From NCBI RefSeq assembly GCF_048403405.1, contig NZ_CP183131.1: a stretch of DNA of 64,000 nt. One strand, 5' to 3'. Within the stretch, counting starts at the first letter, position 1. Each line of letters starts with the position of its first letter. Position numbers: made by a program. Positions 45,080 through 51,000 of this stretch are shown here, in pieces. Source of the DNA: Escherichia coli. Lineage in GTDB: Bacteria; Pseudomonadota; Gammaproteobacteria; Enterobacterales; Enterobacteriaceae.

Positions 45080-48000
45080 TAAAAACTGGGGATAACGCCT
45101 TAAATGGCGAAGAAACGGTCTAAATAGGCTGATTCGATGTGTTTGCGGGAAAAAAATCGGCCCAGATCCGCGAAATTTTAATCAGCGAGTCAGCTTGGGA
45201 AGAAATGACCTGCTTATTCGCACCTTCCCTAACGGAAATCCAAGCAGATATACTGCTCTATATTTTAAACCGGTTTTTTTCATCTTATTATTTATCTATA
45301 TGTTTTGAAATCTTATCTACAATGGATGTAGTATCCATATTCATTATCCTCCCTGCTTTTTCAATCAGAAACTCAGCTTCATTTGTTATGTTCTTTGACT
45401 CTTCATTAATAATGTCAATGATAGTTTCTAGTGCGATTCCATACTCACCCACATCAATAAATTCTTGCACTTCTATACTTTCAGATTCAGAAAACGAATC
45501 AGACAGCACCATAAGCAAAAGATCTAGCGTGGATTCAATTTCTCTATATTCATTTTTCATTTTGGATTCCTTGGTACGTTTGTTGGAAAACCTGAAACAA
45601 TATCACCATTAGATTCTTGTATTACACGAACATTAATACCTTCTTTAACTGCCTCTGCAATAGTCCTACCACCGCGCCCAGCCTTTCGAGAAACATTTGG
45701 ATCGGTAGCTATATCGGAAATGACGTGCATAATTTTTTCATCAGACCAACTTTGAGGAAACTCACTTTTTCCAGGCTTGCCTGTTCCTGCTCGATGCCCT
45801 CCACCAGTGGCGTCACCATCAAGAATATGCTTACGTCTCTGGGAACTGGCTAGGTCTACAAAATCATCAGCCGTATTTTTAAAAGCGCGTTCCGCAACAT
45901 TCCCTAGCGCCTTATAGTTGCCAGGCAGGATAATCCCAGCAGCAAAAAGCCCCCCGGAAATCCACTTTTCTCTTGAGGTCGCACAATCACTGGTGATGGT
46001 CTTGAAGGTGTCATAGGCGTCCCAAGCGCTCAAGGCAAAGTCTATGGCAACATAAGCCCCCAGAAGAAGCGGCACAAACTCCCCTGTTGGATCTGCATTG
46101 CCTATCGGGTTGCTCAGCGCATAGGCATAGGTGTTAATCCCACCAGCCAGCCCAATCGGGTCACTGGTGATGTAACGCCCGGTATTCGGGTCGTAGTAAC
46201 GCCGCCAGTTGTAGTGGAGCCCGGTCTCCGCGTCGTAATACTGTCCTGGGAACCGCAAATTGAAGGTCGGCCCCTGAGTGGTGATGCTGGCCTTACCGAA
46301 CGGGCTGTAGCTCGCCTTCCAAACCACTTGGCCGCTGGCGTCGGTTAGCGCCTTCGGGGTGCCCAGATGATCGACGTGGACTTGATAGGTCTGTCCTGAC
46401 TGAGCAAAGCTCAAGGGGGTGCCATCGAGCCAGATATACTCCGCCAGCACGTCTCCAGTGGCTGCGTCCAGCTCCTCGATGAGGTTTCCTGCCAAGCCGT
46501 AAATCAGTAGGCGGGTCTGGCCGTTTAGGGTCTTAGTTACACGCTGATCCAGATGGTTGTAGGTGTAAGCTGCTGTCACTCCAGCGACCGTTGCGGCCAC
46601 CAGCCGGTTCTGGCTGTCATAGGTGAAGGTATCCGCCCCCTGCTTCGTCAGGTTGCCATTGGCGTCATAGCTTCTGGAGGTTTGCCCAGTCTTCACCAGC
46701 CAGTTGTTCATGTAGTTGATGGTGTAGCTTTGGCTCAGGCCATCGGTCGTGATCGAGGTCCTGTTGCCGGTGGCGTCATAGCCATAGCCCAAAACGCCAT
46801 AGAGCCCCTCAGCAGAGGTGATGCGGCCAACCGCGTCATAACCGAGTGACTGATTGACTGATGAGCTGAGATTGTCGTCTATGGCTGAAATCAACGAGTC
46901 TGGCGTGTACCGATAGACCAGCGAATGCACTCTAGTAGCGTCGATGCCGGTGACTCGGTAATTGAGATCCAAAGAGCGACTTTCTGAAATGCCGTTCCAT
47001 CTGACCATACTGGTGACGGGGCCAAAGGGCGCTCGCTCGATCTGGCTTGCCAGGCTTGTTGTGGTGCCTGCTTGTGTCGTTGCCACCTCGATGACGTCAC
47101 CGGCTAAATCACGGGTGTAGGAAACCTCACGACCACTGGGATACGTGATCTTCGTGATGAGGCCTGCACCATCGTATTGGTACTGGGTAGTAAGGCTCTG
47201 CCCGTGGGTTTCCCAGGTCTCGTAAGCCAACCATCCTTCGGGTGTATAGCCATATCTCCGGACACCGTTGCCATCATCGACTGAGGTCAAGCGGCCCATG
47301 CCGTATGGTGAGGTTGCTTCGTCGTACCCGTACAGAATTGGCGATTCGCCAGCGACACCGCTGGATGCCTCGATGATCCGGTTCAGCGCGTCGTAGCTGT
47401 AGCTTGTGGTTTGTCCCTTGGCCGTCTTGCGCGTTGCCACGTTACCGGCTTCGTCATAGGTAATGTCGGTGGTGCCGGTGTCCGGGCTCCGGACCTGAGT
47501 CACTTCGCCAAAGCCGTTGTAGCTGTAGTAGGTCAGGCGCGAACGAGGGTCGGAGACACGGTAAACATCGCCGGTATCCTTGTAGAGCACCTGCGTGACC
47601 TTCCCGAGTGGATCGGTCGTTTGTGTCCGGTGATGGAAGCCGTCGTACTTGTAGGAGTGTGTGTTACCAGAGGGACTGGTCTCCTGTATCAGGTTTGCCA
47701 CCACATCGTAGGAAAACGATGACTGATTGCTATAGGCGTCGGAGACACTGGAGAGCCAGCCGATTTCGTTGAAGATCCGGCGCTCTATCCAACGGGTCTG
47801 GCCCAGCGCATCGAGCAGTCGCTCTTCTACTGGGTTCCCGAGGTCATTGAGCTCAAGCTCGCGCCGGTTGCCCTGTGCATCTGTTTCCGCCACCAGCCGA
47901 TGTGCAGCGTCGTACTCATAGCTGACGGTTGCACCATTTGGCTTAGTCAGCGAGCTCAGGAGGCCCACAGCATCATAGTTGTAGGCCGTGGTTCCTTCTG

Positions 48001-51000
48001 GTCCAGTGGAGCTGACAAGTCTTCCTCTGGCGTCATAGGTGAGGGTTTGGGTTACACCGTTGACGCCCTGAATGGTCCCGGCGCGACCGTTCGCGTCGTA
48101 GTCACCAAACTGCATCACCTGCCCCAGCGCGTTTGTTGTCCGGATCAGGTTGCCCTGGTCATCGTAGTCAAATGTCGTAACATCGCTGACGTCGGTGCGC
48201 GGACCATCAACCGAGGCCAACAGGCTCGGCTTTCCTGTACCAACAGGGGCATAGGTGTAGGTCCATGTCCGGGAAGCGCCCGAGCTGCGATCTGTGACCT
48301 TGCGGCTTATCACCCGGAGATGAGTGTCGTAGGTAAGCTCAGTGATCCTGGTTGGTTCCGTGATTTTTGCAGGGAGCGACTTGGAAGGAAGCCAGTCGGT
48401 CGTAACCTTGCCCCCATCCTGGTCTATCTGGGTGGTTTCCAATCCCCGGTCGTTATGGGTGAACGTGCGCTTCTGTCCAGCACGATCTGTAATGCTGGAG
48501 ACGAGGCCTTTGCTGTCGTAGACGTAGGTTTCCTTGCCTCCCACAAAGCCGGTACACGGCGCACCCTCAACAACATCAGGCTTGAGCATCCCGTTGTGAC
48601 GGCTGTAGGTATATCGCTGAACGTGGCCGAGGGCGTTGGTGACAGAGACGCTTCCGTCAGCGTTGTAGCTTACCTGAGTCTTCTCTGCGCCCCCGGCGTG
48701 TTCACTTAGAACTGCCATCCCCTGAGCATCATATCCCCATGTGGCGAAACGGTTGCCGTTCTCGTCCACCAGCCCAGAGAGCAAACCCGGTGCATTCGGG
48801 TCATCGTAGAGATAGCTGCGGCTCGTATTGTCCTGGTAGATCACTTCCGCCAGCTTGCCAGCGCTGTTGTACTGGTACTGAATACTGCCACCAGCAGGAT
48901 CGGTGACACTGACCATGCGGCCATCTTGATGCTGGAACTGGATGTTGCGGCCAAAGCCGTCAGTGATCGAGGATAGCTCTCCGTTCAGATAGCTCAGGGT
49001 GATGTGATTGCCGTTGGGCTTCTCGATGCCGGTCAGTCGTCCGGTTTCATCATAGGCCTCGACTACCCCGTCAGATTGAGTGTAACGCCAGCCGGTAGCA
49101 TCCTTCGTCAAGGTATCATCGGTTTTCCATGTTGGCACCCAGACAGAGGACGAGTTGTAGAACGCGAGTTGTTGCCCTTCTGGCCGGTGCAGGACAACCA
49201 TGTTCTCACCGTACTTCGAGGCGTTGACCTCGACGCTCCGCGAGTAGGTATGCCGCCAGCCGCCGAGCTCTTCATCAGGAAGGTGGCTATTGTAGTATCT
49301 GGTGAATGTGAAAGGGTCGGAGCCTCCGCTTTGATAATCCAGTTCAGCCTGGAACTTGTTGCCGGTGCCAAGATGGATAGGGTTCCCTACACACATGGTC
49401 GTTGTTGGTAAGCCGAGATCCCTGTCCAGGAACGGTGTTTTATCCATCTCACCCGGCAGAACATAGGTTGAGCGCCAGTAGACCGTAGCTGGGTCGCCAG
49501 TGCAGGTAGTGGGGTCATAATCGCCAGTAGCACCTAGATACTTAAAACAGATCCTGGAGACATAACGGCCATCACCATAACTGGCAACCGGATAAAGCGC
49601 ATCCCCAACTGGCGTTCCCTTCCCTTGCTCCTCACCAGAGCGATAATTCTTCATGAAGGAATGCGCGTCTATGATGGTGTTGAAGCGCATTTTGTCTACT
49701 TCGGTGCTCACGGCTACAACCCGCCATTGTGCAAAAGCAACGCATGGCAAAGTTGCGAGCACCACAACGGCCAATGACCGCAGGTTTCGCATCAGTAAAA
49801 GGGAAGGTCTCGATCTCATTTACAGCTCCAGTTTTTATGCTGGAGCTATTTTCAGGTGGGAGAGTCGTTATCAACGACTGCGTTTTTGCCCTTTTAGGGT
49901 ATGAATACGTGATTTGGAGAGGTTGTGTATTCAGAACAAATGAGAAGCAGGTTACTCATTTCGCTCAAACACTGTGACAAGAACACGTTTTTGGTTGTCG
50001 TCGTTGATCACCATCAGGTACTTGAACTTGGAATCTCTATGGCCCCAGACTTCCACGTTATCTACGCGGCCATACTTTCTGGCTTTATGGCGAGCCACTT
50101 TCTCGTCAAAGGGTTGAACCTGTAACTCTGGATGCTGGAGGCGACCAACGAGTGAGGCCCACGGTTTTTTAGGGTCTCCAGAGGTTATCCGGGCCTGATA
50201 CTGATCGATGGCATGTTGAGTAACAAGGACGGGACCAATGGCCGGTGTAGAGATTTCGTCATGGGTTTGAGTATAGGCTTGCTTGTCCACATCGAGGAGC
50301 TCAACGTTGCCCTCACCCGGCTCATCCATAAACTCCATGCTCTGCGAAACTTCAATAGTAGCGCCCTTTAAACGTCCAGTGAGGCAAGCCGCAAACTTGA
50401 ATGCAAACTCCTTGGTGGATTTGCCCAGCGCCAGCTTTTTAATCGCACCTTTGGATACCACCAGCTTGTAACCAGCACCAGCACCTGGCTCTCTGCAAAA
50501 AACCTGTTTGTCCAGCGCCAGATAGCGAATGGCTACGAGCTCAGCCAAAAGATCTGCCTCCTCGTTGTCAAAATCAATACGAACATCAAGGATGCCTTTC
50601 CGTTTTGTACCAACGCGCCAGAATACAAGGGCTGAATTATTAGAAGTTTTCTTCGAGACAGTAGTCAGTGTCATCATGGTCTATTTCTCCATTATCGGGA
50701 TAATGGTCGGCATCGCCGCCAGCACCCCTATTCGTTAGGGTTCATTTAGATGCTACCACGGGTTTTAAAAATGCAACCCCTAGTGCCACTCTATTTGTGG
50801 TCCCAAGTATTTTTATAAGCTCGGGCTAGGCGTTTCTCTATCACTTCTGACAAATTGCAACCATCGACTTCTGCCAACCGCTTCAAAATCCTGTGGGCTT
50901 TATCGCTTATAGTTATGCTTTTACCAACACCATATCCCCTTCTGCGACGTTGCCTAATTGATGTCCCGAGTTTATTGATTTGCTCTGCTGTCAGATATTT

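Follow-up and report, generated by a model that had tools for sequence, protein, structure and literature searches.

The rhs2 operon of type 2 IncC plasmids: a predicted EndoU toxin, its MafI-family immunity gene and a hairpin lying outside the AcaCD-dependent mRNA

What is the long rhs gene of IncC plasmids for, and is its translation governed by the hairpin lying just before its start codon? We have approached these questions with the copy found in a 64,000-nucleotide stretch of DNA from Escherichia coli (contig NZ_CP183131.1, assembly GCF_048403405.1), hereafter called the window, in which rhs and the small gene following it are encoded on the minus strand, as are all features described below unless stated otherwise. 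The explanation that accounts best for the evidence, and that as a single claim we consider probable, is that the two genes form an operon driven by AcaCD, the master activator of IncC transfer; that they encode an Rhs protein exported by Sec and ending in an EndoU-type ribonuclease (RNase), together with an immunity protein of the MafI family; and that the hairpin is absent from the mRNA that AcaCD switches on.

Identity of the operon and of its toxin-immunity cassette

Sequence comparison identifies the locus as the operon of rhs2 and its immunity gene (vcrx128-vcrx129) found on type 2 IncC conjugative plasmids. Positions 45288..50677 of the window correspond to 93816-99205 of pVCR94deltaX (NC_023291), spanning vcrx127, vcrx128 and vcrx129, with 0 mismatches in 5390 nucleotides (nt). 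Upstream of rhs and over its first ~220 nt the sequence is 100% identical to that of p397108-Ct2, which has been typed as rhs2, against 97.3% identity over the same stretch for an rhs1 plasmid, and the allele of the window is therefore rhs2. It is the same gene as in the type 2 IncC (A/C2) plasmids pVCR94, R55 and p397108-Ct2, a type defined by rhs2 together with orf1847, i1 and i2 (PMC7652850, PMC6872532). Matches of 97-100% identity were found in 861 records of a plasmid collection and at 158 plasmid places among E. coli genomes, on conjugative plasmids of 100-270 kb that are IncC wherever the replicon type is shown and that reside in Klebsiella, Salmonella, Escherichia, Vibrio, Providencia, Aeromonas and further genera. 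The toxin-immunity cassette at the end of the operon is shared, at 99% identity or more, by 349 plasmid records, the genera represented including Klebsiella, Escherichia, Salmonella and Vibrio.

The preliminary description of this locus, made from the sequence, had proposed a long Rhs reading frame with a C-terminal toxin of no nameable family and an overlapping immunity gene. The reading frame is indeed there, covering 1420 amino acids (aa) when counted from the ATG (45557..49819). Between a predicted signal peptide and a DUF6531 domain at aa 145-220 (49160..49387; Pfam PF20148, E 1.4e-13), aa 32-144 match no family; Pfam RHS_repeat matches begin at aa 256, the YD repeats are recognized by NCBIfam TIGR01643 (E 1.4e-55), and the Rhs-associated core at aa 1171-1246 (46079..46309; TIGR03696, E 1.5e-25) ends in the motif DPTGE (aa 1243-1247; 46093-46079), a position that agrees with the ends of solved Rhs cores, the motif being the visible sign of a possible autoproteolytic release of the C-terminal toxin. 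The last 173 residues contain HILDGDATGGGHRAGTGKPGKSEFPQSW. Comparison of the rhs1 and rhs2 proteins gives 98-100% identity up to ~aa 800 and 92-96% up to ~aa 1240, beyond which, past DPTGE, the two are unrelated; the GC content falls from ~57% to 33-37% across the toxin-immunity cassette, over the last 600 nt. Judged from these sequence features, divergence past DPTGE and the drop in GC correspond to the classical layout of polymorphic toxins. The YD shell, the core with its DPxG motif, the exchangeable C-terminal toxin and the downstream immunity gene are shared with the Rhs effectors of type VI secretion systems (T6SS), such as Tse5, Tre23-Rhs1 and Salmonella Rhs (PDB 8CP6, 7PQ5, 8QJC), and with WapA of Bacillus subtilis.

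The core is joined to the toxin by a hydrophobic helical linker of ~66 residues, delimited by structure model and hydropathy at aa 1248-1313 (45881..46078), with three predicted helices (predicted local distance difference test, pLDDT, 56-70) and a Kyte-Doolittle value of 1.7 over its first 19 residues. It is 82% identical to the linker of an Aeromonas rivipollensis Rhs protein (P0117) that bears a different toxin, Tox-SHH (PF15652), and the junction at which toxins are swapped can therefore fall after the linker. To judge from this sequence likeness, the linker travels either with the Rhs core or as a module of its own, possibly with a role in membrane translocation.

The claim that the C-terminal region matches no toxin family did not hold. 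Its last 207 residues match the bacterial EndoU nuclease family (EndoU_bacteria, Pfam PF14436) with E 2.4e-9 over model positions 64-128 of 129, and a weak second piece, over the motif HILDGD...GGGH, matches model positions 2-28, so that the model is covered in part. Among 5.8 billion proteins searched, 204 matched; nearly all of the 120 matches listed carry PF14436, and several homologues among them are named 'EndoU domain-containing protein' by NCBI. In an alignment of 49 sequences, residues H84, D89, GGGH95, K104, S121, D122, T125, T166 and N167 (counted from the residue after DPTGE) are conserved in at least 90%. The domain, placed at aa 1326-1413 (45581..45844) by PF14436 and conserved residues, thus holds His1331 and His1342 (H84 and H95), Lys1351, Ser1368/Thr1372 and Thr1413/Asn1414, positions that fit the Tox-EndoU signature 'H, H, [SNT], [SNT]' of Zhang et al., who also list RHS among the carriers of Tox-EndoU and signal-peptide ('T2SS') export among its routes (PMC3482391). 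An AlphaFold model of the toxin domain has pLDDT 89-98, and searches of the PDB with the C-terminal region (phmmer and profile) matched the Rhs-core part, with no solved relative of the toxin domain. Membership of EndoU rests on the hidden Markov model and the conserved residues, the evidence from the fold being consistent with it without discriminating. From this sequence evidence we infer that rhs2 ends in an EndoU-type RNase toxin. Neither sequence nor profile searches from this domain detected CdiA-CT(STECO31), the EndoU anticodon nuclease paired with CdiI (PDB 5HKQ), from which rhs2 differs also in immunity family and in delivery system (type V secretion in CdiA); the two histidines of rhs2 lie 11 residues apart.

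A toxin-immunity pair that is truly unclassified is present elsewhere, namely in rhs1 rather than in the rhs2 of the window. In the rhs1 locus of pEC1-1/2a (L002, 6882-11547), the 170 residues past DPTGE are unrelated to those of rhs2 and have no Pfam match even at E <= 10; they hold a motif ELHHW...H...H reminiscent of HNH-type toxins, and the overlapping downstream reading frame of 140 aa has no NCBIfam match.

The immunity gene itself (vcrx129, 90 aa; 45288..45560) was rightly recognized. Its ATG overlaps the TGA of rhs as ATGA, the same 4-nt overlap being annotated by RefSeq, and its product, which has no Pfam match, aligns with positions 1-67 of the 67 of NCBIfam NF033691 ('MafI family immunity protein') at 64.5 bits (E 5.7e-18), well above the curated cut-off of 31. 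Salmonella (L012) and Massilia (L013) likewise have an EndoU gene and, 0-6 nt behind it, a gene for an 89-aa NF033691 protein 35-40% identical to that of the plasmid; the Salmonella pair is an orphan cassette amid SymE/SUKH genes, the Massilia pair lies downstream of a giant SpvB/TcdB/RHS protein. The retention of the same pairing in unrelated genomes, together with the score above the cut-off, supports the identity of vcrx129 as an immunity gene.

The closest functional parallel is found in Neisseria meningitidis, whose MafB(MGI-1, NEM8013) was the earliest bacterial toxin of the EndoU type with demonstrated RNase activity and is blocked by the MafI encoded downstream (PMC4287609). Both it and rhs2 are polymorphic toxins with a signal peptide, a C-terminal RNase of EndoU fold and a small immunity protein encoded directly downstream; they differ in scaffold, which is the MafB N-domain in one and the Rhs shell in the other, and in rhs2 the RNase is predicted. 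NF033691 could not be linked to the MafI cognate of EndoU MafB, since the search for homologues of the immunity protein yielded 15 proteins with 0 from Neisseria.

A separate arrangement of these genes occurs on pK520-MPH of Aeromonas allosaccharophila (L004, 8026-8969), where a NERD-like 'nuclease-related' open reading frame (ORF) is fused in frame to the last 46 EndoU codons, with a MafI gene, still intact, and the same pair of small membrane ORFs behind it. This has the look of an rhs2 remnant left by a deletion that spared the immunity gene, as may be expected if immunity stays useful after loss of the toxin; alternatively, it may be a mere deletion scar.

The AcaCD promoter, the hairpin and the start codon

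Expression of this operon can be read from the regulon of AcaCD, which Carraro et al. 2014 mapped on pVCR94deltaX (PMC4207636). The coordinates of that study refer to NC_023291 and were transferred through the mismatch-free alignment described above; given the identity of the two sequences, the binding box and the start site map directly onto the window. The box of AcaCD, which is FlhDC-like, reads ATTCATACCCTAAAAGGGCAAAAACGCAG (49878..49906) and was located by a ChIP-exo (chromatin immunoprecipitation with exonuclease) peak and a MAST motif at 94587-94615 (p 2.5e-9), while 5'-RACE (rapid cDNA-end amplification) placed the AcaCD-dependent start at 94651-94652 (PMC4207636), that is at CA in the context AGCTC[CA]G (49841..49842). 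The spacing from box to start is 36 nt for vcrx128 and 34-36 nt at all other AcaCD promoters (PMC4207636), and the site is therefore one of genuine initiation and not of processing. Expression of vcrx128, in a predicted operon with vcrx129, rose from 0 in the delta-acaCD strain to 349 with acaDC induced (Table S3 and Dataset S1, PMC4207636), and a later study cloned this promoter fragment as a reporter for AcaCD/SgaCD (PMC8373056). AcaCD thus activates the rhs2-immunity pair along with the transfer genes, so that toxin and conjugation machinery are produced at the same time.

The intergenic region upstream of rhs comprises 132 nt and reads ...CCTGAAAATAGCTCCAGCATAAAAACTGGAGCTGTAAATG. A putative -10 hexamer, GAAAAT (49848..49853), can be placed from its position relative to the mapped start, where it takes in the two outer pairs of the extended stem described below. 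A scan for sigma-70 consensus promoters found none upstream of rhs, a result that is uninformative for a promoter depending on an activator. RNA of the preceding gene, vcrx127, is present without AcaCD and drops on its induction (48 to 7 in RNA-seq; PMC4207636).

The palindrome noted in the preliminary description is exact. Its arms, AGCTCCAG (49847-49840) and CTGGAGCT (49831-49824), are 100% complementary and separated by a loop of 8 nt (49839-49832), and pairing can extend to a stem of 10 bp (49849-49840 / 49831-49822), the whole element occupying 49822..49850; as described, the Shine-Dalgarno (SD) sequence GGAG (49826..49829), 6 nt upstream of the ATG at 49819, is part of the 3' arm. For the 41-nt hairpin the folding energy is -16.0 kcal/mol, compared with -4.2 +/- 1.9 for shuffled sequences (z -6.2; 0 of 200 shuffles as low). 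This value needs to be qualified, since 2% of all 41-nt segments in the window reach -16 kcal/mol or below and perfect 8-bp inverted repeats with a loop of 3-10 nt occur there 43 times, so that the strength of the hairpin is in itself unremarkable. The palindrome has no second copy in the window, and a search of Rfam over 45100-50100 returned nothing at E <= 1.

What the preliminary description had concluded from this geometry, namely that the hairpin sequesters the ribosome-binding site of rhs, is largely unsupported. On RNA started further upstream the SD would be buried, with a probability of being unpaired of 0.00 and a cost of 16-18.6 kcal/mol for opening the segment from SD to AUG. The mapped start lies inside the 5' arm, so the AcaCD mRNA lacks the anti-SD arm and cannot form the hairpin. 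This mRNA begins (C)AGCAUAAAAACUGGAGCUGUAAAUG and retains just 2-3 nt of the 5' arm in a leader of 22-23 nt with GGAG free; its first 60 nt fold at -4.2 kcal/mol, more weakly than shuffled sequences (z +1.0), the SD is unpaired with a probability of 0.33-0.54 and opening SD to AUG costs 4.6 kcal/mol. The hairpin could therefore act solely on RNA started further upstream.

To examine how far the region is conserved, we compared relatives whose N-terminus has diverged, namely a plasmid from a metagenome (79% aa identity), Vibrio parahaemolyticus, Photorhabdus khanii (96%) and Shewanella profunda (84%), together with four metagenome contigs. Six variants were assembled from a protein search with the N-terminus (9 matches), a scan of genome contigs (2 loci) and a scan of metagenome contigs with the hairpin entered as N (4 contigs); the upstream region of the most divergent N-terminal homologue, P0124 (67% identity), was left out of the comparison. 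The core of the AcaCD box, CCCTAAAAGGGCA, is invariant in the six related loci. All relatives agree in the box core, in CCTGAAAAT, in both arms and in the ATG, and this includes relatives with an unrelated sequence upstream of the box. The sole change affecting an arm across the six variants is A<->G at the outer position, which keeps an A-U or G.U pair and breaks the symmetry of the DNA. In contrast to the stem, with 1 variable site in 20, loop and spacer vary at 6 sites in 10 (one-sided hypergeometric p ~0.002, confounded by the overlap of the arms with SD and -10): the loop has five versions, CATAAAAA, CGTAAAAA, CGTAACAA, CGCAACAA and TGCAACAA, with 4 of its 8 positions variable, and the spacer alternates AA<->TT at 2 positions.

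Two further observations concern the same region. A second perfect inverted repeat, AGTCGTT-N3-AACGACT (49863-49879), occupies part of the stretch from the AcaCD box to the -10; read on the plus strand, with GCGTTTTTGC behind it, it has a terminator-like score, and it is not conserved in the Shewanella relative. Two metagenome contigs, L014 (minus strand, offsets 2874 and 4320) and L015 (2196 and 3642), have two modules each of AcaCD box and palindrome, 1446 nt apart, with the first 14 nt of rhs joined in one copy to the 3' end of a vcrx127-like gene; this junction suggests a scar of recombination or duplication at the rhs promoter.

The mapped start site also bears on where translation begins. 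RefSeq/PGAP (WP_014342219.1) starts rhs at a GTG located 36 codons downstream of the ATG at 49819 (window 49709-49819), and the original annotation of pVCR94 at Met56. From the mapped start, the SD and the conserved N-termini of homologues, we infer that the ATG at 49819 is the probable start. Both annotated starts cut off a predicted Sec signal peptide, MRSRPSLLLMRNLRSLAVVVLATLPCVAFA, with cleavage before Q (aa 1-31; 49727..49819), which was recognized by eye from its basic n-region, hydrophobic core and A-x-A motif before Q. The more distant homologues P0128 and P0124 retain a signal peptide ending ...A/QWRVVAV (the slash marking the cleavage point), in one case with a quite different hydrophobic core. 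A lipoprotein signal based on LPC was rejected, as Pro at -1 is disfavoured and P0124 is without the Cys.

Readings of the hairpin and of the export route

How then should a hairpin be understood that the AcaCD mRNA does not contain? Its stability, its possession of the sole SD and the conservation of its arms would suit a device within the rhs mRNA itself, which masks the SD until a melting signal (temperature, an RNA or protein in trans, or coupling with upstream translation) opens it. The data of the preceding section leave this reading very improbable: the mapped start falls within the 5' arm, at a distance from the box that all AcaCD promoters typically show, the leader from that start is unstructured, rhs RNA was not detected without AcaCD, and Rfam offers no match. 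The reading that we prefer, though tentatively, is drawn from the geometry and the folding analysis: the hairpin would act on read-through RNA alone, by fold-back. Read-through RNA coming, for instance, from vcrx127 or from resistance islands upstream would bury SD and AUG at an opening cost of 16-19 kcal/mol, and synthesis of the toxin would thereby stay strictly tied to AcaCD. Many IncC plasmids have resistance islands upstream of rhs, so that a use for such a device is plausible. The transposase gene of IS10 is reportedly protected from outside transcription by fold-back inhibition of this kind, described by Davis, Simons and Kleckner in 1985. In IS10 as in rhs2 the native start lies inside an inverted repeat, so that native mRNA is without the arm that pairs with the ribosome-binding site and read-through RNA carries it; the geometry is present at our locus, in that only RNA started upstream can form the SD-masking hairpin. 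The likeness is architectural only, being known for rhs2 from sequence geometry.

It may equally be, and we give this possibility serious if limited credence, that the palindrome as such is without function, the 3' arm being kept as the SD region, the 5' arm as the -10/+1 region, and their complementarity being fortuitous. The frequency of equally strong segments and of perfect 8-bp repeats in the window agrees with this; covariation is not seen, as the six variants show no compensatory double changes, so that pairing is neither supported nor refuted by it; and the related loci amount to just 4-5 lineages of ~80-96% protein identity. Conversely, discriminator and +1 sequences are not usually conserved base for base, and the depletion of variable sites in the stem, with its stated confounding, speaks for a constraint on the arms. 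Another reading places the function in the DNA, with the palindrome serving as operator for a dimeric repressor that sits on +1 and shuts the toxin promoter until relieved. A perfect 8-N8-8 palindrome centred just downstream of +1, with invariant half-sites and a spacer that varies in sequence and not in length, is typical of operators. We nevertheless judge this improbable: there is no second copy in the window, the outermost base is G in 4 of the 6 variants, which breaks the DNA symmetry while keeping an RNA G.U pair, expression is already 0 without AcaCD, so that silence needs no repressor, and no candidate binding protein emerged.

For the protein, the alternative to Sec export is that rhs2 is a classical T6SS effector carried on the VgrG/PAAR spike of its host, its N-terminal hydrophobic stretch not being a cleaved signal. 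Most characterized Gram-negative Rhs toxins, including the solved examples, are indeed T6SS cargo, and the RefSeq start codon leaves out the putative signal peptide. Yet aa 1-500 contain DUF6531 and RHS repeats only, a domain search having found no PAAR, prePAAR, VgrG-interaction or other T6SS-linked domain in them, and there are no vgrG, eag or T6SS genes in the plasmid neighbourhood of rhs2, which consists of uncharacterized IncC backbone genes and a primase-like gene. The plasmid, moreover, moves among Klebsiella, Vibrio, Shewanella, Proteus, Aeromonas and others. The T6SS repertoires of these hosts differ. Homologues with a different N-terminal sequence still end their signal in ...A/QWRVVAV, and on balance T6SS delivery appears quite unlikely. 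Unlike T6SS Rhs effectors, rhs2 thus has no PAAR or VgrG module and its expression is tied to an activator of conjugation; in its predicted Sec signal it resembles WapA, which is Sec-dependent, its own context being a plasmid of Gram-negative bacteria.

Against the explanation that we favour, an AcaCD-driven operon for a Sec-exported Rhs-EndoU protein with the hairpin left outside the mRNA, several points have to be set. For rhs2, the RNase and its toxicity, the protective effect of the immunity protein and export are all predictions from sequence; the signal peptide was called by eye, and the RefSeq GTG excludes it; the hairpin has no compensatory changes across the six variants, and the overlap of its arms with the -10/+1 region and the SD possibly explains their conservation. 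In the delta-acaCD strain, RNA-seq gave 48 for vcrx127 and 0 for rhs (PMC4207636), indicating little read-through RNA under laboratory conditions; that scarcity could, speculatively, reflect Rho polarity on untranslated RNA.

Genomic surroundings and meaning for IncC plasmids

Unlike pVCR94deltaX, the window has an additional IS5, outside the operon on the plus strand (44034..45228), 59 nt past the immunity stop. This copy is complete (1195 bp), with terminal inverted repeats GGAAGGTGCGAA... and a 4-bp CTAA duplication (44030-44033 / 45229-45232), and it disrupts an ORF for an 80-aa small membrane protein, whose other half lies at 43842-44048 and which is uninterrupted in pVCR94deltaX (99210-99434) and in the Aeromonas locus L004 (8971-9213). 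Upstream of the operon, on the minus strand at 49952-51262, are vcrx127 and vcrx126, preceded by a strong terminator-like hairpin at 51262-51239. The first encodes a protein of 241 aa that matches no family and is conserved in IncA, IncC and Aeromonas plasmids; the second, of 133 aa, has a weak MatP-like match (E 3.9e-8) below the cut-off. In the IncC-related plasmid pN354-2 of Citrobacter freundii (L003, 7750-14749), rhs is replaced by a type IV CRISPR array and csf1-csf3, which come directly after the vcrx127 homologue and a clean intrinsic terminator; the backbone position of rhs is a cargo hot spot. The resistance islands found upstream of rhs in many IncC plasmids are of the ARI-A type, and a mer/IS4321 segment is seen in L002.

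Public records already contain the gene with its AcaCD promoter and start site, RefSeq names the immunity gene, and the combination of EndoU with Rhs scaffolds has been listed before. Throughout the literature searched, the rhs of IncC appears solely as a typing marker and insertion hot spot, and we found there no statement of IncC rhs2 as an EndoU/MafI pair, of a Sec signal hidden by the annotation of its start codon, or of a start site inside the SD-complementary repeat. For the hairpin, the value of the present analysis is one of correction, as published start-site data put it outside the AcaCD mRNA; in practical terms, current RefSeq start codons drop the signal peptide and so hide the likely route of export.

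If the favoured explanation is right, the operon would work as follows. The 1420-aa protein would consist of a Sec signal, an N-domain specific to the family, DUF6531, a YD-repeat shell, the core up to DPTGE, the linker and the EndoU-type RNase; its Rhs shell would enclose the RNase, and it would be exported by Sec and not on a T6SS spike. The 90-aa MafI-family protein, translationally coupled through ATGA, would neutralize the RNase in the producer and in other plasmid carriers, and the toxin would most likely cleave RNA, tRNA or other, in neighbours devoid of the plasmid-borne immunity. One may go further and picture rhs2 as a T6SS-independent, Sec-exported weapon made only while conjugation is on, penalizing neighbours or segregants without MafI, with the palindrome as a safety device silencing transcripts not due to AcaCD and with rhs1, rhs2 and rhs3 as rival alleles that set the antagonism between IncC lineages; this wider picture is speculative, and as a whole we would think it rather unlikely.

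A Rhs toxin coupled to conjugation and apparently independent of T6SS is nevertheless a reasonable lead for experiment. IncC plasmids rank among the major carriers of resistance genes, those for carbapenemases included, and recognizing rhs2 as a predicted RNase toxin with signal peptide and immunity protein, induced by AcaCD, makes the question of what rhs is for a testable one. It raises in turn the questions of whether rhs2 may kill plasmid-free neighbours during mating and whether it may stabilize the plasmid that carries it.

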